Positions 1 through 34,039 of a stretch of 34,039 nt of DNA are shown in pieces. Within the stretch, counting starts at the first letter, position 1, and each line of letters begins with the position of its first letter. The translations under genes and the position numbers were made by a program. Source of the DNA: a virus; the IMG/VR virus record IMGVR_UViG_3300045988_147030, positions 1-34,039 of that record. One strand, written 5' to 3'. The notes beneath the pieces were generated by a model. The model ran no database searches. It was given only the letters and a program-made list of their open reading frames with translations, and was not told where the DNA came from.

Positions 1-45
1 GGCTTCCCAAGCCGAAGGTCACGAGTTCGAGCCTCGCATTCCGCT
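1..45 (+). tRNA. tRNA-Gly: 3' portion of tRNA-Gly(CCC); the 5' part lies upstream of the window
   Basis: Anticodon loop UUCCCAA (CCC at nt 6-8). Variable loop AGGUC. T-arm ACGAG-UUCGAGC-CUCGC. Acceptor 3' strand AUUCCGC. Discriminator U at nt 45, as in bacterial tRNA-Gly. Confidence 0.7.
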
Positions 46-47
46 CA
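1..47 (+). repeat. attL core (47-bp direct repeat)
   Basis: Identical to 33993-34039. Confidence 0.9.
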
Positions 48-3551: not shown

Positions 3552-3965
3552 TCACCGCCTGACCCCTCCAAGCTCATCCGCCCACTTCTCTGTGAAAAAA
3601 GAGTAATAGTCTACCTCCTGCAGTCTTCGGAACGTGGAGTGCGCCCACGCCCAAAGCAGGGACGGAAGCCCTATCACGACAAGATAAAGCCATCCGAGCC
3701 AAGCCGACTGCCTCGTGTGCCCATACTCGTGGCCGATGGTGTCGCGGACGTAGGACGAGCTGTTGTTGCGGTACTTCCGCGGCAGGATGATGAACCTGCC
3801 CAGACTGATGCCGCCCCTCATCCTCTCCGAATAGAGAATGCGCGCGTCACCATAGGGAACTTCCATACAGTCGCAGTCCACGCTGTAAACCTGGAAGAGG
3901 ATGAACCCCAAAAGGTTCTGCGGCAACTCCCACAGAATCCTTAGAAAATCGATGAAACCTTTCAT
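3552..3965 (-). CDS. Small membrane protein with an HExxH motif (zincin-like, DUF3267-like)
   Basis: 137 aa. The motif is GHEYGH. Hydrophobic segments include LLGFILF and WLGWLYLVVIGLPSLLWAW. Confidence 0.55.
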   Translation of the reverse strand: MKGFIDFLRILWELPQNLLGFILFQVYSVDCDCMEVPYGDARILYSERMRGGISLGRFIILPRKYRNNSSSYVRDTIGHEYGHTRQSAWLGWLYLVVIGLPSLLWAWAHSTFRRLQEVDYYSFFTEKWADELGGVRR

Positions 3966-4018
3966 AATCCGTCAATATATCAGCGTTCAACGTAAATAAA
4001 TTGTCAAAATCTGACAAC

Positions 4019-4465
4019 TCAAAGAGCCTTGTACTCGCTGGTCGCGTCGAAGCACGGGCACGCCTTCTTGGCGAAATCCCTATGCCCGCGTATCTCAGCG
4101 TTCGGGTACTTGGCTTTCAGTTCCCTCAGGAGTTTCAGAAGAGCCTCCCTCTGCGCCAGCGTCCTCGTGTCCTTTGCCTTGCCCGATTTGTCAAGGCCTC
4201 CCACGTAGCACACGCCTATGCTGTCCGTGTTGCGCCCGGCGCAGTGCGCCCCGATCTCGCCCTCCGGCCTTCCGACGTGCACCGTGCCGTCAAGGTAGAC
4301 GACATAATGGTAGCCGATGGTGCGGAAGCCTCTTGCCTTGTGCCACCTCGTTATCTCGTCCGTGGTCACCCACCGTCCCTCCGGCGTGGCCGTGCAGTGG
4401 ACTATGATTAAGTTAATCTTCCTTGGCATAGCTTTTATCCTCCTTTTCGCTTTCAGGCGAGCCAT
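4019..4465 (-). CDS. N-acetylmuramoyl-L-alanine amidase endolysin (T7-lysozyme/PGRP type)
   Basis: Motifs IIVHCTATPEG, GYHYVV, AHCAG and a C-terminal GHRD...CPCF. An alternative ATG start lies at 4429. Confidence 0.9.
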   Translation of the reverse strand: MARLKAKRRIKAMPRKINLIIVHCTATPEGRWVTTDEITRWHKARGFRTIGYHYVVYLDGTVHVGRPEGEIGAHCAGRNTDSIGVCYVGGLDKSGKAKDTRTLAQREALLKLLRELKAKYPNAEIRGHRDFAKKACPCFDATSEYKAL

Positions 4466-4969: not shown

Positions 4970-5557
4970 TTAGATGCTGATGACAAGCGGCAGGTGGTCG
5001 GACATCGCGAAGCCGTCGTCATAGACGGAGCAATCGACTCCGGCCAACCCCTTCGTGACACAGTGGTCTATGTCTCCTTGCGCGCCCGTAGTATAATTCT
5101 TGAACGTATAGCAGCCTCTCTTAGGCATCGGCACCTTGAGATTGTCGGCTACACTTATGTAAGTCTGGTTGAAATCGCCAACCACCAAGCATGGCTCTTT
5201 CATCCGCCCTTTGATTTGCCGCCAAGCCCTGTCCATGCATTTCCGCCATGTTCCGTGAACATTGATTATGCGTATTCCGCCAATCTTTGCGGCGTTGTGG
5301 TGGACCGCGAACCACAGCGGCCTCGACTTGATTCCCTTGCGTACATAGATGTGATGAGAGATCGAGAGGCCGACACGGCGGTAGCCTTTAGGTATCCAGA
5401 GGTTCGCGGGGAACGACAGCTCCTGAAGACACAGCACGTCAGGGTCCTGCTCCAGGATGAAGCTCCTGACGCGCTCCATCCTTTTCACCCAGAACCTTTC
5501 GGAAGCCCGTTTGGTGTCCCTTGTCCAGACGCGGCAGTTCAGTGATATTATCTTCAT
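4970..5557 (-). CDS. Endonuclease/exonuclease/phosphatase (EEP) fold protein, minimal 195-aa form
   Basis: EEP catalytic motifs appear in order: SLNCR (Asn), CLQE (Glu), VVGDFN, and a C-terminal SDHLP (Asp-His). Confidence 0.8.
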   Translation of the reverse strand: MKIISLNCRVWTRDTKRASERFWVKRMERVRSFILEQDPDVLCLQELSFPANLWIPKGYRRVGLSISHHIYVRKGIKSRPLWFAVHHNAAKIGGIRIINVHGTWRKCMDRAWRQIKGRMKEPCLVVGDFNQTYISVADNLKVPMPKRGCYTFKNYTTGAQGDIDHCVTKGLAGVDCSVYDDGFAMSDHLPLVISI

Positions 5558-5575: not shown

Positions 5576-5836
5576 TCAGCCGGAACCGTGTCCGCGTCGT
5601 CCCGTGTCCGCGTCGTCCGGAACCTCCGCGTCAAGGGCGGCCAGCCCGGCCTCGGCCTCGTTGATCTCCGCGCGCCACGTCCTCCTCTCCGCAAGGACGG
5701 CGGCGTACTCCTCCGCCGTGGCCGCGCCCTCAGCGATCTTTGCCGCCACGTAGTCCGTCTCCTTCAGTTTCGCCTCCCTGTCCCTGACGAGGGAGTACAG
5801 GACATTCCTTCTGTCCTCGATTTCCTGTCTTGTCAT
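5576..5836 (-). CDS. Hypothetical coiled-coil protein (86 aa); weak resemblance to tail-fibre-assembly chaperone motifs
   Basis: The ATG at 5836 starts MTRQEIEDRR.... Third codon positions are G/C-rich. It overlaps the RT ORF tail by 107 nt. Confidence 0.5.
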   Translation of the reverse strand: MTRQEIEDRRNVLYSLVRDREAKLKETDYVAAKIAEGAATAEEYAAVLAERRTWRAEINEAEAGLAALDAEVPDDADTGRRGHGSG

Positions 5837-7034
5837 CGTGTCTGTCTTTGTTGAGTTTGAAATGATACTTTCTCTTAAGCTGGTCGTTGTGCCTATATCC
5901 GTCGTTTGCCACGAAGCACCGCCTGTCATCGTCATAATGGCAATATCTCAGCCACTCCGGACTCACCTCGTCCACGAGGTCGCGGATGATCCCGTAGGCG
6001 TTACGATGCTTCATCATGCCGAGGTAGCTGTTGACGCTTGAGAGAAAGCGCCCCAGCATGGACGGCCGCGCCATGCTGTTCCACAGGCGTATCTTCCTCC
6101 GGCAGTTCCGCGCGCACCTGTCGCTCGCGTATATCCTGCCGAACTTGATCTTCGCCCCGAGGAACGCCAGCCCCTTGCTGTAGTGCTGGCAGTAGCGCTT
6201 TCCCGGGTGCATCTTGTAGCCATATTCATTGAGTAGCATCCGCTCGCTCGTCGCCACATGAGCGAGTCCCGCCTCCTTGTTCTCCATCACCCACACCATG
6301 TCGTCCACAAACCTGGTGTAGGCCAGCCCACACGTCTCGACCTGGAAGCGGTCGAACTCCGCCAGGGCGTAGTTCTTCTCGACCTGCCAGAACTGGTTGC
6401 CGAGGCACGCGCCGCGGGACGGGTCGTTGTTGAAGACCACGCTCTTCCCGGCGGCCATGATGCCGCCCCATTTGCACTTCGGGGACCTCAGCCTCGCGTG
6501 TTCCTGCGGATACGCGTAGTTAACGCGCATCAGGATGTAAAGGAGGTCGTCCCTCTCGTCCCCGTCGACTATTTCCCTCTCGATCAAGCTCCGGTACGCC
6601 GTGTAGGAGCGGTCAAGGTCCGTTGACGGGAAGAACGACTTGATGTCCCGCTGTATCACGTAGCAGTCCCGGGTGTAGTTCCGCGACATCCTCCTGATGT
6701 CATCGCGCACCTTCCTGATCGCCCTGTCGCATCCGTAGCCCACGCGGTTGTTGAACGTGCTGGCCGTCAGTTCCGCCTCGACGAGCGGGCGCACCCTCAG
6801 GTCGAAGTGGTGCTGCAATATCTTCATCTGCATCAGGCACGCTATGACCTCCCGGGGTCTCGGCTCCGGATTGATGAAAGCATATAGAAAAGAAACAAGG
6901 GTGCGGTCGTTGAAATCCTCAAGCAGCCGCGCCAGGTCTCTCTCCCAGTGTAGCTCGAAATGCACGCTGTCCGGACTCCTGCGCTTGTTGGCGCGGCATC
7001 CCAGATAGTCGTCTATGAGTGTTTCAAAAACCAT
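5730..7034 (-). CDS. rt: DGR reverse transcriptase
   Basis: RT motifs DIKSFFPS, LGNQFWQ (at the DGR (I/L)GxxxSQ position), RFVDDMVWV, and HPGK...GLAFLGAKI. The TR ends 13 nt upstream of the start. Confidence 0.9.
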   Translation of the reverse strand: MVFETLIDDYLGCRANKRRSPDSVHFELHWERDLARLLEDFNDRTLVSFLYAFINPEPRPREVIACLMQMKILQHHFDLRVRPLVEAELTASTFNNRVGYGCDRAIRKVRDDIRRMSRNYTRDCYVIQRDIKSFFPSTDLDRSYTAYRSLIEREIVDGDERDDLLYILMRVNYAYPQEHARLRSPKCKWGGIMAAGKSVVFNNDPSRGACLGNQFWQVEKNYALAEFDRFQVETCGLAYTRFVDDMVWVMENKEAGLAHVATSERMLLNEYGYKMHPGKRYCQHYSKGLAFLGAKIKFGRIYASDRCARNCRRKIRLWNSMARPSMLGRFLSSVNSYLGMMKHRNAYGIIRDLVDEVSPEWLRYCHYDDDRRCFVANDGYRHNDQLKRKYHFKLNKDRHDDKTGNRGQKECPVLPRQGQGGETEGDGLRGGKDR

Positions 7035-7047
7035 ATTCCTTCAATCA

Positions 7048-7188
7048 TAATTCACGAGGGGAACCGCCACGTTCCTGTTGTTCAGGTTGTTGCCGCCAGC
7101 ATAGCCGTTGTTGCCGTTCGCGATCCAACCGTTATTCTGGTTGTAGCGGGAACAACTCCAGACGTTGCTGCTCCGAGTCCCATTCCTT
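7048..7188 (-). repeat. DGR template repeat (TR)
   Basis: The core 7053-7171 aligns to VR 7795-7913 with 20 differences, all at coding-strand adenines. The TR is AAC-codon rich. Confidence 0.9.
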
Positions 7189-7251
7189 GCTCTTACCTGC
7201 CGCATATGCGGAAGGAGGGTCTCCTTTATGATTCCGGAGACTGCCGGATCG

Positions 7252-7695
7252 TCACCCGACGCCGGTCATGCCCTTGTTTCTGTTTTTCATTATCGATTTC
7301 CTCCATCTTGTCACACCTTCGTCCAACTTCGCCAGACTCTCCATGATCCTCACCTTCATCTGGTCCGGAGTCTCGCCGGACCTTGTGTCCCGGACACTGA
7401 TGACGTTCCTGCCTCCGATCAGTCTGACCGTCCACATGAACACAGCCATGTTCGCGCAGAGCCTCTTCAGGTGGATCCATCTGTCCTCCTCGAAGTCATA
7501 GGCGAGCATGAACTCCCTGATGACGTCCTGGATCTGCACGACTGCCCTGTTCCCGTAACGGATGCGATCCACCTTGGTCATCATCATCTCCGCCCTTATC
7601 AGCAGGTCGTAAAGCTCCACCGCGTCTATGATTATCTGCGGCTGTTCCTTCTCTCCGGGCAGCAGGGCCGGCTCGTAATATTCGGATCTCGGCAT
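7252..7695 (-). CDS. avd: Accessory variability determinant (Avd-like helical bundle protein)
   Basis: 147 aa, helix-rich, with a basic C-terminus (RWRKSIMKNRNKG). It sits between VR and TR, as in canonical DGRs. Confidence 0.75.
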   Translation of the reverse strand: MPRSEYYEPALLPGEKEQPQIIIDAVELYDLLIRAEMMMTKVDRIRYGNRAVVQIQDVIREFMLAYDFEEDRWIHLKRLCANMAVFMWTVRLIGGRNVISVRDTRSGETPDQMKVRIMESLAKLDEGVTRWRKSIMKNRNKGMTGVG

Positions 7696-7728
7696 GACTT
7701 GATGTTTTTTTCGTTTTCAAATTTAACA

Positions 7729-7754
7729 GGGCGGCCGCGGGGACGCCGCCGCCC
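7729..7754 (-). promoter_or_regulatory. GC-rich hairpin downstream of the VR and target stop codon (DGR hairpin/cruciform candidate, possibly also a terminator)
   Basis: Minus strand GGGCGGCGGCG-TCCC-CGCGGCCGCCC pairs over 10 bp with one mismatch. It lies 11 nt past the stop codon. Confidence 0.55.
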
Positions 7755-7764
7755 AAGAGTAAGC

Positions 7765-9154
7765 CTAGGCCGCGCCTCCGGCGACGTTCAAAAGCACGAG
7801 GGGAACCGCCACGCCCCTGCTGCCCAGGACGTCGCCGCCAGCACAGCCGTTGCCGCCGCTCGCGATCCAACCGCCAACCTGGACGTAGCGGGAACAACCC
7901 CAGACGTAGCTGCCATTCCCCAGCGACGGGGCGCCGATGGCCTTCAGGGCCGAGTTTACCGGGTCGGCGTCGCGGTCGTTTGTGGTCGGATACCTCAGTT
8001 GTCCGACAACGCTGAACACCCTGCCGATGCCCGGAAGGACCCATTCGCCCTGCTTCAGAAGATCGTGGTCGTGCCCTAGGGTTGCCGCCAGCCTTGCGGC
8101 CGGGCTCGCGTACTTCACTTCGCCGTCCTGTCCGGCGTAGGTGATCCCTGCCAGATAGTACGTGTTCCGCTTTTCCGTGCCGTACTTGCTCTCGTCATAG
8201 ATTCCATACTCCGACGGACGTACAGACAGGAATCCCTCCATGAACTTCAGCCAGCCCTCCTCACCCTCGCCGTAGACGCCGCGCAGGAAGGCGCAGTGAT
8301 CACTCTGGTACTGCGACGTGCCGAGATATCCCGGAAGGCATATAGGATAAGAGACTTTTTTCGAGGTGACGTCCGACGCCGGGTTGTAGGTCGTGCTGGA
8401 GTTGTCGCCGCGGAAAAACGCCAATGCCCTCGGCCAGTTGGTTATCGTGCCCTCGCCGTTCCTCCTGCCGTTCCTTCGCGTCATCTTCGTTGTGTCAGCC
8501 CACTCAGGGGCGGTCGCGGCGGCCATCGCGAACCCATCTTTCGCCGTGTTGTACGAGGCTTGGAGATATCTTGTGTATGTGAAGTTCAGGGTGACGTTCC
8601 CCGTCCCCGTCGACTTCCGCGACCCAGTCCTGCGCCGTGAACGGCTCGTTCGCCTTGAAGTAGGCGTTGAGCTGCGCGACGAAACTCTCGGCGGTGGAGG
8701 CGTTATAACTTATGACGTAGTCGTGGTTCGCTGCCCATTCGTCGGAGGCTATCCTGACGCTAAGCGTGCCGGTTCTGTCCGTCCCGTCAAGAGTAAAGCC
8801 CGTGAGCTTCACGAACCACCTCTCGAGCATCGCCGCGGACGCGAACGTCTTGCTCATGACCGCCACCTCGCCGCGGAAGTCCGGGTGGTCTACGCCTATG
8901 ACGACCACGCCCACGACCTCGCTCCCTTCCTCCATGCCGTCCGATTTGAACGTCCCGGGGGCGATGAAGTGGAGCGCGTGCGAGCCGTCCAGCACGGCCA
9001 CGCTGCCTGTCCTTGCGGACCTGAGCCCCACCACCACGTTCCTGCCGTCGTACTTGCATTCATTGCCCGCCTTTATGAGGGACACCTGACTCTCGGATGC
9101 CCCTTTGGCGGTGTCGGCCTTGTAGGCCGCCTCTGTGTCGTAATATTTTATCAT
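7765..9154 (-). CDS. DGR target protein (receptor-binding candidate with a C-terminal lectin-like VR), interrupted by an apparent 1-nt frameshift near 8599-8602
   Basis: The N-terminal frame (ATG 9154) is protein-like up to ...WVAEVDGDG. The C-terminal frame is protein-like from NVTLNFTYTRYLQ..., which is upstream of its first ATG at 8526. The total length of 1390 nt is 3n+1. Confidence 0.7.
7790..7913 (-). repeat. DGR variable repeat (VR) at the 3' end of the target gene
   Basis: See the TR alignment. The invariant 3' segment GTGGCGGTTCCCCTCGTG is shared with the TR. Confidence 0.9.
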
Positions 9155-9168
9155 GATATATCCTATTT

Positions 9169-10587
9169 TTAAGCCTGTTTCCAATCCGCTACGGAATCAG
9201 CCCCGACGGCGTAGTACAGCCCGCCGGAAGCCGCGTCCAGATTGATGTAGATCTGCCCGACGAACGCCGGGATGCCGTCCCACGGGAGCCCCTCGGGAAG
9301 GTTCCCGGGAGTGTTCGCCTCGGCGGGCACGCCATGCCCGCGCATGACCGCCGGATACCGGCACTTCGTCAGCTCTGACACGTCAAGGGTGCCCACGGTC
9401 GCGTCGCCCAGGCGCCCGCGGCTCCCCTCCAGCGCGTCCAGACGGGCTGCGAGGCTCACTATGGCCTCGGCGACCGTGAGGTTCTTGCCGTCGACGTAGA
9501 GCTTGACCGCCTTGTTCTCCACGGCGTTCTCCGACGCGTCCGAAAGCTCCGCGTCAGGTGCGACGTTCTTCTGCGCGCCCGTCTCCACGCCGCCGAGCTT
9601 GGCCTTGTCTTCCGCCGTGTAATCATTGCTGGACAATCCCTTCCCGTCTACCTTGTCCACCTTGGCGTCGAGGTCGGCGGTCTTGGCGTAACCCTCAAGA
9701 CTCTGGTGCTCCGTGAGGAACCCGCTGTCGTTCTTAAGCTCGGAGACATTCGTGGGTATCTTCGTCGTGTCCGGCAACGCCCCCACCTCCTTCGCCGTAT
9801 ATGACGGCTTGGTGACGGCCTTCGCCCAGTCCGGCACGGTCGGGTCGGTCTCCGTATATCCCTGCAACGCGGAATCAAGTTTATTCTTGTCCTCGTCTGT
9901 GAAGTCGTTCGTGGACAAGCCTTTGCCGTTCTCCTTCGCCACCTTGCCGTCCAGAGCCGTGGTGACGGCCTCCAGATCGGCCGACGCCTTCTCCTTGGTC
10001 TGATAGGTTCCCGATGCGTGCTCCTTGGTCTCGAACTTCGCGTCCGCCTCCTCCCTGGAGTACATCCCGAGGTCCGAGGGTTTCTTGTTGCCCTCGAGCG
10101 TCACGCCGCCTATCGACGGGCGGTTCTCCAGCAGGTTGTAGTCCGTTATGCCGGAGACCTGCCCGACGCGGAGCGTCCTCGACCTCACGTCCACGGAGAT
10201 GTTCATGCCCTCCCCCGTGCCGCCCTCCGCTGTGGTTCCGAGCGACGCGTCGCCGCTGTCAGCGACGATCGCGAAAAGATTTCCTTCGAAAATCCTCCCA
10301 TCCTGACCGTCTCGCTTGAAAAGAATTTCCACGCCATACACCCCTGGCGCAAGTGTGACCCCGGCAAAAGTTGCGGTAACCTCGTCGCCATTGACGGACA
10401 CGCTTCTTGCGTCGATTCTGTTGAAAGACCGAACGAGTCTCATCCTTAGATCAGTACACCCGTCGAGGTTGAACGCGATGTACGTACCGCTATCCGCGTC
10501 ATAGATAGACGCCAGGGCTGTAACCGTAAGATCATTTCCTTTGACCATACGGATGTCCGGTAAATTATTATTATTGCATTGTTCCAT
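9169..10587 (-). CDS. Tail fibre protein
   Basis: 472 aa with repeated GKGLSxND(F/Y)TxEDKxKL fibre-repeat motifs. It lies downstream of the tail genes. Confidence 0.7.
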   Translation of the reverse strand: MEQCNNNNLPDIRMVKGNDLTVTALASIYDADSGTYIAFNLDGCTDLRMRLVRSFNRIDARSVSVNGDEVTATFAGVTLAPGVYGVEILFKRDGQDGRIFEGNLFAIVADSGDASLGTTAEGGTGEGMNISVDVRSRTLRVGQVSGITDYNLLENRPSIGGVTLEGNKKPSDLGMYSREEADAKFETKEHASGTYQTKEKASADLEAVTTALDGKVAKENGKGLSTNDFTDEDKNKLDSALQGYTETDPTVPDWAKAVTKPSYTAKEVGALPDTTKIPTNVSELKNDSGFLTEHQSLEGYAKTADLDAKVDKVDGKGLSSNDYTAEDKAKLGGVETGAQKNVAPDAELSDASENAVENKAVKLYVDGKNLTVAEAIVSLAARLDALEGSRGRLGDATVGTLDVSELTKCRYPAVMRGHGVPAEANTPGNLPEGLPWDGIPAFVGQIYINLDAASGGLYYAVGADSVADWKQA

Positions 10588-10611: not shown

Positions 10612-10693
10612 CGTTAAGCGTCCACGGGATGCTACACATCGTTAAGCGTCCACAGGATGCTACACATCGTTAAGCGTCCACAGGATGCTACAC
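10612..10693. repeat. 28-nt tandem repeat, 3 copies (CGTTAAGCGTCCAC(G/A)GGATGCTACACAT)
   Basis: Units at 10612-10639, 10640-10667 and 10668-10693, with no spacers. The array is intergenic, upstream of the fibre gene. Confidence 0.9.
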
Positions 10694-10727
10694 CGGAAGC
10701 CCTGCGGCCTATCCGGTTTTTTTATTA

Positions 10728-27705: not shown

Positions 27706-28350
27706 TTATAATTTCATACCGTAAACATTGGCGACCTTCTTGATGACATCACGACCATAATCGTCCTTGGTCTGCTCAAAGAATGTACGCAATGTGATGC
27801 TGTCGGTCGGCTTGTAGCCGTGCTCCTCGCACCAGTTGCGTCTTCCAAATTCGCAGGAGCCAGTGAGGATGTGATGCCACCGGTACAGATCGGAATATTC
27901 GTCATCCAAGGACGGGTGCATATTCACAAACTCAGCTATCCTCTCGCCAAGCGGACGGTTCTCTTTCCACTTGGCATACACAGCCTTGACGGCATCGCGC
28001 AGCGTGTCACCGTGGGCGAAGAAGTTGCCGCGCTTGGCGATCCAGCAGTCTTTCAGCGTCAAGTCCTTTTGAAGCACCGCGCCTTTCGCCACGTTGCAGC
28101 GGACGGCATAGATGAGAGTTGGAACATTATCAACATCATAGACCTTGCGGCCGTTGAACTCATTGATGCCGTAACCGTCACCGGAACCGTCACCGGAACC
28201 GTCACCGTAACCGGAACCGGAACCGTCACCGTAACCGGAACCGTCACCGTCACCGTCACCGTCACCGTAACCGGAACCGGAACCGTCACCGTAACCGGAA
28301 CCGGAACTTACGGCCAGAAACCGCTCAATATCTTTCCCTATCGCTTCCAT
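27706..28350 (-). CDS. Hypothetical protein with an N-terminal (GSGYGD)n low-complexity repeat
   Basis: The ATG is at 28350; the track start at 28392 is TTG. A 47-aa G/S/Y/D repeat is followed by a globular C-terminal domain. Confidence 0.6.
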   Translation of the reverse strand: MEAIGKDIERFLAVSSGSGYGDGSGSGYGDGDGDGDGSGYGDGSGSGYGDGSGDGSGDGYGINEFNGRKVYDVDNVPTLIYAVRCNVAKGAVLQKDLTLKDCWIAKRGNFFAHGDTLRDAVKAVYAKWKENRPLGERIAEFVNMHPSLDDEYSDLYRWHHILTGSCEFGRRNWCEEHGYKPTDSITLRTFFEQTKDDYGRDVIKKVANVYGMKL

Positions 28351-28643
28351 TCCTTCTTCGCTTCGATGTTCTCTATCGCCTTGCTGGTGCAAGGAATAAT
28401 CTGAATGGCGTTCGCAGCCACCAACTCAGGCACGGCCACGGTTATCTTGCTGTCGTCGTTGCAACCGTCCTGTGAAAGCTGCTCAACAGCAGCGGCACCA
28501 TCCCAGTACCACACCTTACGGGCATTAGCCAGACGCACGTTCAGCCCGTTGGCATAGCTGCTTACTTCCTTGACCTCACCGAAGAACACCCCGGCACCAT
28601 AGCATCTTACGATGCACTTCTTTCCGATGTAACTTTTCATCAT
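28338..28643 (-). CDS. Hypothetical protein (101 aa)
   Basis: ATGATG start; it is the first gene after the ORF-free island. Confidence 0.6.
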   Translation of the reverse strand: MMKSYIGKKCIVRCYGAGVFFGEVKEVSSYANGLNVRLANARKVWYWDGAAAVEQLSQDGCNDDSKITVAVPELVAANAIQIIPCTSKAIENIEAKKEWKR

Positions 28644-33992: not shown

Positions 33993-34039
33993 GGCTTCCC
34001 AAGCCGAAGGTCACGAGTTCGAGCCTCGCATTCCGCTCA
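33993..34039 (+). repeat. attR core: displaced 3' fragment of tRNA-Gly(CCC)
   Basis: Identical to 1-47. Phage sequence precedes it, so no complete tRNA can form here. Confidence 0.9.

Follow-up and report, generated by a model that had tools for sequence, protein, structure and literature searches.

The window, the whole 34,039-nucleotide stretch of DNA that forms the IMG/VR virus record IMGVR_UViG_3300045988_147030, very probably carries a diversity-generating retroelement (DGR) in a temperate HK97-type siphovirus-like phage of gut Bacteroidales. The element has the layout of Bordetella phage BPP-1, in which a target gene ending in a variable repeat (VR) is followed by an avd-like gene, a template repeat (TR) and the gene for a reverse transcriptase (RT). 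All of these parts were found on the minus strand in the order that an initial annotation had given (target/VR, hairpin, Avd, TR, RT), and every part of the element is kept in at least 25 related loci.

Adenine-specific differences between template and variable repeat

A direct repeat of 119 nucleotides (nt) on the minus strand, with copies at 7053–7171 and 7795–7913 and an offset of 742 nt, was recovered both by a repeat finder (83%) and by hand alignment. The two copies differ at 20 of the 119 nt, and each mismatch lies at a position that is adenine on the minus (coding) strand of the TR: 20 of the 31 TR adenines are hit and none of the 88 other bases, figures that agree exactly with those of the initial annotation. 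From TR to VR, 16 of the changes are A to G and four are A to T. Under random placement, the chance that all 20 mismatches would fall on adenines is 3.4e-15.

In the reading frame that ends at TAG 7765–7767, codon positions 1 or 2 hold all 20 mismatches. The TR translated in this frame reads SNVWSCSRYNQNNGWIANGNNGYAGGNNLNNRNVAVPLV, as it does in the initial annotation, and 19 of its 39 codons bear adenine (11 AAC, one AAT and seven with a single A). Adenine is absent from the third codon positions of the TR. Substitution of the TR adenines can reach approximately 1.6e18 peptides and no stop codon. The VR itself codes for the last 39 codons ahead of a short constant tail of the target.

The boundaries of the repeat had been drawn more widely, with the TR at 7048–7188. 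Mismatches past 7171, checked out to 7188, lose their adenine specificity, and the TR is accordingly taken as 7053–7171. At the opposite end, three additional differences at adenine sites in 7048–7052 had been read as mutagenesis. Here, the TR has AATTA where the VR has CTTTT, and a T-to-G difference follows. As the flanks also differ at a T and are kept in distant relatives, these are fixed differences of the type found between the initiation of mutagenic homing (IMH) sequence and its TR-side counterpart (IMH*), which are known from DGRs (PMC5758913). Both flanks, CTTTTG at the VR and AATTAT at the TR, persist in relatives with RTs that are just 61–67% identical, and the VR flank codes for a conserved PLVLL.

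Recent diversification among near-identical genomes

Three near-identical genomes (L004, L005 and L006), which are contigs from different ENA metagenome assemblies, one of them from a Hadza gut sample, share 99.5–99.8% identity with the window over 10.1 kb. The four-way alignment contains 15 substitution sites, nine of which lie within the 119-nt VR (binomial P 2e-14), and all nine coincide with TR adenines (P 2e-6). No substitution separates the four sequences in the TR, the Avd-like gene or the RT; this stretch differs only by a T insertion in L005 (7031), a few bases into the RT open reading frame (ORF). This pattern, with variation in the VR only and at adenine sites, is what adenine-directed mutagenic homing predicts.

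The protein sequences behave similarly. Some cluster members of the closest homologue are identical to the window's target protein, joined across the frameshift described below, except in the VR. Among 120 homologues, the 19 adenine-bearing TR codons have a column entropy of 2.36 bits; the remaining 20 VR codons have 0.51, and all other columns of the protein 0.42. The VR polymorphism in near-identical genomes is direct evidence of recent diversification, and the sequences indicate that the element is active in the lineage. A monomorphic VR alongside an inactive RT had been named beforehand as the outcome that would speak against a DGR; the opposite was found, with a VR that is polymorphic at TR adenines only and an RT that is intact.

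Table 1. Features of the DGR in the window, listed along the minus strand.
Feature	Position	Strand	Description
Target gene, N-terminal part	8603–9154	-	ATG 9154, frame A; ORF 8504–9184; aligns to residues 1–185 of homologues 461–462 residues long
G4 run with one extra G	8599–8602	-	GACGGGGAAC here, GACGGGAAC in L001, L004, L005 and L006
Target gene, C-terminal part	7765–8598	-	Frame B, NVTLNF... to TAG 7765–7767; carries the variable domain
VR	7795–7913	-	Repeat alignment; near-identical genomes polymorphic there only at TR-adenine sites
IMH-like VR 3′ end	7768–7813	-	19 nt GC-rich and TR-identical (7795–7813), then VR-specific CTTTTGAACGTC... flank
GC-rich inverted repeat (hairpin/cruciform)	7729–7754	-	GGGCGGCGGCGTCCCCGCGGCCGCCC; 41 nt past the homology end, just beyond the stop codon
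Avd-like accessory protein	7252–7695	-	147 residues, isoelectric point 9.1; four-helix fold, place between VR and TR
TR	7053–7171	-	Repeat alignment; identical in the window, L004, L005 and L006
IMH*-like TR 3′ flank	7035–7052	-	AATTATGATTGAAGGAAT; 18 nt ahead of the RT start codon
RT	5730–7034	-	434 residues; RVT_1; phrog_1423; LGNQFWQ and RFVDDM motifs

The target gene and its frameshift

The ORF that begins at ATG 9154 leaves frame at 8599–8602 and stops at 8504, and the VR-bearing ORF is open only from approximately 8709, with its first ATG at 8526. Joined at the G run, the two frames encode a protein of 462 residues. Each of the 120 top-ranking homologues in the database spans 97% or more of this joined protein, and with one exception they are 460–464 residues long. 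In the gene calls of the source database, the window instead has two separate hypothetical proteins, P0180 and P0181.

The extra G lengthens a homopolymer by one base, occurs privately in the window, and leaves a downstream frame that is otherwise undamaged. The sequences suggest that its likeliest origins are an error of sequencing or assembly at the homopolymer and a very recent mutation private to the window; for the three reasons just given, an error is the more probable of the two. Programmed ribosomal frameshifting at 8599–8602 was also considered and is ruled out, as no relative has the extra base. Two further changes are private to the window. A 16-nt tandem duplication (CCGTGTCCGCGTCGTC twice, at 5586–5617 or, against the three near-identical genomes, 5603–5618), present as one copy in L001, L004, L005 and L006, lies near the 3′ end of ORF 5576–5935 and would shift the frame of that ORF. 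Three clustered substitutions occur at 9412–9415. Taken with the extra G, these changes suggest that the window has more private errors or mutations than its relatives.

If the extra G were real, a genuine DGR would be present in a decaying copy. The full-length variable protein would not be made, and the element would diversify a pseudogene or, at best, a 253-residue C-terminal fragment from the internal ATG 8526. The frameshift does stand in the given sequence and splits the source gene calls in two, the 16-nt duplication and the 9412–9415 substitutions also set the window apart from the three near-identical genomes, and broken copies exist elsewhere, such as the truncated RT ORFs in the related loci L007 and L011. 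However, the target ORF is uninterrupted in the 120 listed homologues (461–470 residues) and in the three near-identical genomes, and a single base in a G homopolymer is a typical sequencing or assembly error. Furthermore, nothing else is broken in the window's VR, RT, Avd-like gene, TR and hairpin, which do not differ from those of intact relatives, and no further damage has accumulated in the downstream frame. Decay of this copy is unlikely on the present evidence, if far from negligible. The element had initially been described as complete; this holds for the lineage, in which all parts occur in order, and is uncertain for the copy in the window, where the target is frameshifted.

Nature of the target protein

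The target has no match in Pfam, NCBIfam, PHROGs, PDB (by sequence or profile) or deposited phage genomes (tblastn), and the 3.8-kb DGR region has no DNA match among deposited phage genomes. A profile search of 1.84 billion cluster representatives recovered relatives in 226 clusters at 50% identity, mostly of 400–470 residues. In nine of 111 distant relatives, the C-terminal ~90 residues match the Pfam family Lcl_C (PF07603, formerly DUF1566). These matches are all under the gathering score (best 25.7 versus 34.9 bits), and Lcl_C is the only Pfam family that recurs. Five C-terminal domains from the window protein and its close relatives, one of them with the TR-encoded sequence, gave no Pfam match at E 10. 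An AlphaFold2 model of the full-length protein (P0001), built with 119 close homologues in an alignment that is deep and not diverse, has a pLDDT of 47.5, with the C-terminal domain below 50.

The C-terminal VR follows the pattern W-S-x-S-R-x(5-6)-[GA]-W-x(20-25)-hydrophobic end. Through this W-S-x-S-R...[GA]-W motif and transitive weak homology, a domain remotely like DUF1566 (CLec2) is a reasonable lead. A C-type-lectin or DUF1566-like fold had been put forward at the outset as something to look for; weak Lcl_C matches in distant relatives point that way, and the window protein itself gives none.

As described in the initial annotation, the VR forms the C-terminus of a protein encoded directly downstream of a tail fibre, and the gene upstream of the target does have tail-fibre PHROG hits. 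From gene position only, the target is likely a distal tail or receptor-binding protein. An active DGR might instead diversify a virion decoration or a prophage-expressed host-surface protein. Such a target would sit well with the lack of PHROG, Pfam, PDB or GenBank-phage matches, with the 222-residue gene that separates the tail-fibre-like gene from the target in L001, and with the observation that Bacteroides DGRs also diversify non-phage surface proteins (bioRxiv 10.1101/2024.11.15.621889). Nevertheless, the gene closes the tail module, after the tail-fibre PHROG gene and ahead of the lysis genes, a position that is usual for receptor-binding proteins and phage DGR targets (PMC6199706, PMC10743442), and the weak Lcl_C/DUF1566 relationship recurs in the family. 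A role outside the tail is thus considered improbable.

Reverse transcriptase and Avd-like protein

The RT and Avd-like ORFs were found at exactly the coordinates first assigned to them. The RT matches Pfam RVT_1 and the PHROG 1423 "reverse transcriptase" at 1e-34. When compared by sequence with all PDB chains, its sole match is 8ub7_A, the RT of the BPP-1 DGR, and this match is weak (E 5.5e-06). The motifs LGNQ[FYH]WQ and FVDD, the latter at the catalytic YxDD site, are invariant in 23 relatives. DGR RTs bear the signature [I/V/L]GxxxSQ, versus QGxxxSP in other RTs (PMC7826257); in LGNQFWQ, the L, G and Q of the DGR signature are retained and the S is replaced by W. The closest RTs among deposited phage genomes have 30–34% identity over 79–93% of the RT, and RT matches in genomes were confined to a goat-omasum Bacteroidales metagenome-assembled genome and one further bacterium. 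In nearly all relatives, 6–19 nt separate the TR end from the RT start codon.

The RT stop codon is not conserved, as the 434-residue protein of the window corresponds to 467 residues in L001, where the same frame is read to another stop. The last ~35 residues of the RT ORF lie over ORF 5576–5935 in a different frame, and this C-terminal tail is probably unconstrained read-through, not a frameshift. A second frameshift, in the RT, is ruled out by the shared frame in L001 and by the RTs of L004 and L006, which have the same length and no differences. The small ORF 5576–5935 on the minus strand (119 residues; read from an internal ATG as MTRQEIEDRRNVLYSLVRDREAKLKETDYVAAKIAEG...) shares the final ~200 nt of the RT ORF, in a different frame from it, and is not called by gene callers on related contigs. 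Truncated RT ORFs occur in L007 (167 residues, 3661–4164) and L011 (235 residues, 3654–4361), both of which retain the adenine-specific TR/VR pair; the two copies are either decayed or misassembled.

The Avd-like protein has no match in Pfam (E 0.01), NCBIfam (E 0.1) or PHROGs, and sequence and profile searches of PDB found no Avd. Its relatives number 58 among 5.8 billion clustered proteins. An AlphaFold2 model built with 35 relatives is a four-helix bundle with a pLDDT of 88. The first PDB fold matches of this model are five chains of 2gsc, a conserved hypothetical four-helix protein, and the next are chains B–E of 8ub7 and 8ub8, the DGR ribonucleoprotein, all with E 0.01–0.07 and target-normalised TM-scores of 0.7–0.78. 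In BFVD, the top match is "Avd-like protein [Siphoviridae sp.]" (E 1.8e-4), and five further Avd-like entries appear in the top 15. The isoelectric point of the protein (Table 1) can be set beside the mean of 9.5 +/- 0.7 for published Avds (PMC5758913). The Avd family is represented in Pfam by 23S_rRNA_IVP and in NCBIfam by a four-helix-bundle family, and an Avd is expected to form a homopentamer that binds both the RT and nucleic acid. In all 28 related loci examined, of which 22 are viral loci reached via the Avd-like protein and six were reached via the target or RT, a VR and a TR flank the Avd-like gene, and the TR/VR mismatches are dominated by adenine. By its predicted fold, charge and obligatory context, the accessory protein appears Avd-like; sequence profiles do not recognise it. 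The early identification of this ORF as an Avd is borne out in fold, charge and context, and receives no support from sequence profiles.

An ordinary duplication that has diverged, or an artefact of recombination or assembly, in either case with an accidental adenine bias, is scarcely credible as the origin of the repeat pair. Nothing beyond the existence of a repeat speaks for it, whereas the probability of 20 of 20 mismatches on adenines is ~3e-15, 28 related loci from independent samples show this pattern too, and an RT and an Avd-like gene adjoin the repeats.

Flanking sequences and the hairpin

A role of the VR 3′ end as an IMH would follow by analogy with BPP-1 (PMC5758913, PMC3240598). 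Beyond it, the GC hairpin that had been noted between the target and Avd was located at 7729–7754. Of the 11 single hairpins below -18 kcal/mol on the minus strand of the 34-kb window, it is the most stable, at -22.9 kcal/mol. No T run follows it.

Per-sequence folding placed a GC-rich hairpin 38–46 nt past the homology end in 22 of 25 related loci scanned. The scan settled on a longer alternative fold in L008 and L010, where the same hairpin sequence can still be recognised downstream. For L024, in which the VR end had been placed differently, a GC hairpin is again found ahead of the Avd-like gene. The stems comprise at least eight different sequences across related loci. In BPP-1, the structure of the hairpin/cruciform stem matters and its sequence does not (PMC3240598). 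The loop reads TCCC, TCCT or TCCG on the sense strand, with GGGA on the opposite strand only; the loop consensus of phage DGR hairpins is GRNA (PMC3240598). RNAalifold returned no consensus structure from a MAFFT alignment of the hairpin region, in which stems of unequal length were misaligned, and an Rfam scan of the whole window and the DGR region found no relevant RNA family.

A motif, CTTA(A/C)TCTT, lies between the target stop and the hairpin (7755–7767 in the window, with equivalents in L001–L028). It is kept across loci whose Avd-like proteins share just 45–65% identity, and this conservation suggests that it may be another cis-acting piece of the target site.

Proposed mechanism

In the proposed mechanism, the avd–TR–RT region would be transcribed, and the RT, together with the basic Avd-like four-helix-bundle protein, would copy TR RNA to cDNA with misincorporation opposite template adenines. 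The cDNA would then replace the VR, at the target gene's 3′ end, under the guidance of the GC-rich IMH-like VR end and of a GC hairpin/cruciform ~40 nt downstream. Within a C-terminal domain of remote likeness to Lcl_C/DUF1566, this would re-randomise 19 codons and allow ~1.6e18 peptides, all free of stops. Since the target comes right after the tail-fibre gene, receptor-binding variation would be the likely result. Formation of an Avd–RT complex, self-priming of cDNA synthesis, the parts played by IMH and hairpin, and receptor binding by the target are drawn from BPP-1 biochemistry and would apply here by analogy.

Several observations weigh against a functional BPP-1-type DGR in the window. 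The Avd-like protein lacks a sequence-level match to any Avd profile or solved structure, four-helix bundles are a common fold, and the PDB Foldseek E values of the model are only 0.01–0.1. The signature serine of the RT motif is a tryptophan. The hairpin loop is TCCC on the sense strand, not the GRNA of phage DGRs (PMC3240598). The target belongs to no Pfam family at E 10 and is modelled by AlphaFold2 at a pLDDT of only 47.5, and its ORF is interrupted at 8599–8602, so that no full-length variable protein would arise if the extra G is real. Finally, the comparison that speaks for activity is one of consensus assemblies from different samples, not of variants within one population.

Phage context

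The gene with tail-fibre PHROG hits (9169–10587, 472 residues) is directly upstream of the target. It is preceded by the gene for an 857-residue tail-module protein and, before that, by the gene for a 605-residue protein that is probably the tape measure. The DGR is followed by genes for an Exo_endo_phos protein, a holin and an amidase. The Exo_endo_phos protein (195 residues, 4970–5557, minus strand) lies between the DGR and the holin/amidase pair, and has the same place in L001 and L004–L006. Elsewhere, the window encodes a tyrosine integrase (213–1442), an HK97-family capsid protein, an S78 protease, a portal protein and TerL. A SAM_5 integrase domain and DUF6808 are also present, both of which are typical of Bacteroidota.

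A perfect direct repeat of 47 nt occupies the two ends of the window (1–47 and 33993–34039). The repeat aligns to the 3′ part of the Rfam tRNA model (positions 28–71) with a weak score of 20.8 bits (E 0.61) and is cut by the contig end; ARAGORN found no complete tRNA in the window. The repeat lies beside the tyrosine integrase gene, and an anticodon-loop-like TTCCCAA in it would read CCC (Gly). The repeat is either the attachment (att) core in the tRNA gene of a prophage or a circular-assembly overlap cut at attP, and integration of the phage at a tRNA gene is plausible from these sequences. The initial view of a tRNA-integrating HK97-like temperate phage is confirmed as regards the capsid, portal, TerL and integrase; the tRNA part is plausible, with no whole tRNA found.

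Several further features of the surrounding sequence were observed. A 28-nt unit occurs in three tandem copies at 10612–10695, between the genes for the 857-residue tail protein and the tail fibre. L005 has one unit fewer (deletion 10666–10693), and the copy number is thus polymorphic among near-identical genomes. A repeat with a 12-nt period, in at least 11 overlapping copies, is found at 28145–28324 (CCGTCACCGGAA / CCGTAACCGGAA) and probably encodes, on the minus strand, a Gly/Asp/Ser/Tyr-rich repeat inside ORF 27706–28392. In L001, the closest divergent relative, an extra gene of 222 residues (9321–9989) stands between the tail-fibre-like gene and the target. As far as aligned, its last ~20 nt resemble the 3′ end of the window's tail-fibre gene, and from this likeness the tail-fibre region looks mosaic.

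Implications

The window belongs to a temperate phage lineage of ~35 kb that occurs in several human gut metagenomes, and the VR is nearly the sole difference between its genomes. The near-identical genomes form a natural set for studying the rate of diversification. The Avd-like protein family would escape profile-based DGR finders, and the target-protein family, with its 226 clusters at 50% identity, is without annotation. The frameshift also serves as an annotation caution, as the target came out of automated gene calling as a pair of hypothetical proteins.

Comparison with known systems

The arrangement corresponds to architecture B1 of Wu et al. (2018), the most common DGR layout and that of BPP-1 (PMC5758913). 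As in the mtd-avd-TR-brt element of BPP-1, the VR lies at the C-terminal end of a tail-associated gene, and the gene order and orientation are the same. The TR is AAC-rich, and TR and VR differ at adenines only. The TR and VR 3′ ends share a GC-rich segment, followed by divergent IMH and IMH* flanks, and a GC-rich inverted repeat is present downstream of the VR only. Such an inverted repeat downstream of the IMH is found in a minority of DGRs, and BPP-1 needs one for efficient homing. Moreover, the BPP-1 chain 8ub7_A is the sole PDB sequence match of the RT, and the accessory protein resembles the Avd chains of 8ub7 by fold.

The two systems also differ in several respects. The RT matches bRT weakly (E 5.5e-06) and has the signature LGxxxWQ in place of [I/V/L]GxxxSQ, and no sequence similarity to Avd or Avd profiles could be detected for the accessory protein. 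On the sense strand, the hairpin loop reads TCCN and not GRNA (PMC3240598), and the target is not Mtd-like. In BPP-1, the spacer after the TR extends to at least Sp 140 and holds the priming adenosine, Sp A56, together with required RNA (PMC6182149). In contrast, the TR here ends 6–19 nt ahead of the RT start in nearly all relatives, so that any RNA with the function of the BPP-1 spacer and priming site must fall within the RT coding region; if the BPP-1 mechanism holds, priming would be expected in the first ~150 nt of the RT ORF. These differences are clade-level variations. It is conceivable, if rather doubtful, that the phage clade carries a distinct DGR sub-type, marked by its unrecognised Avd, LGxxxWQ RT, short TR–RT gap and conserved TCCN loop, which lies on the other strand with respect to the GRNA consensus. 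Should these features have mechanistic weight, the geometry of priming and target recognition could depart from that in the BPP-1 model.

Among other systems, the closest RTs are those of gut Bacteroidales phages with DGRs, namely the Bacteroides uniformis siphophages F1, F2 and F4 (PMC8143477) and the uncultured human faecal phages MT836212 and MT835523. Their RTs are nonetheless distant, they have no counterpart of the target, and they share no DNA similarity with the window. The C-terminal VR motif pattern and the Lcl_C matches in nine of 111 relatives recall CLec2/DUF1566 targets (the Legionella DGR; category 'd' in PMC5758913), from which the target differs in that these matches are below the gathering score and absent for the window protein and its close relatives. 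Hankyphage of Bacteroides/Phocaeicola (PMC6199706) is likewise a temperate phage of gut Bacteroidales with a tail-associated DGR target and metagenomic VR variation. However, Hankyphage is transposable (PMC12135933), whereas the phage here has a tyrosine integrase and tRNA-like att repeats, and Hankyphage is not among the RT matches listed for deposited phage genomes. More than 1,100 DGRs have been reported in Bacteroides (10.1101/2024.11.15.621889). DGRs of gut Bacteroidales phages are already well documented, and the element in the window mainly adds a well-resolved example to them.

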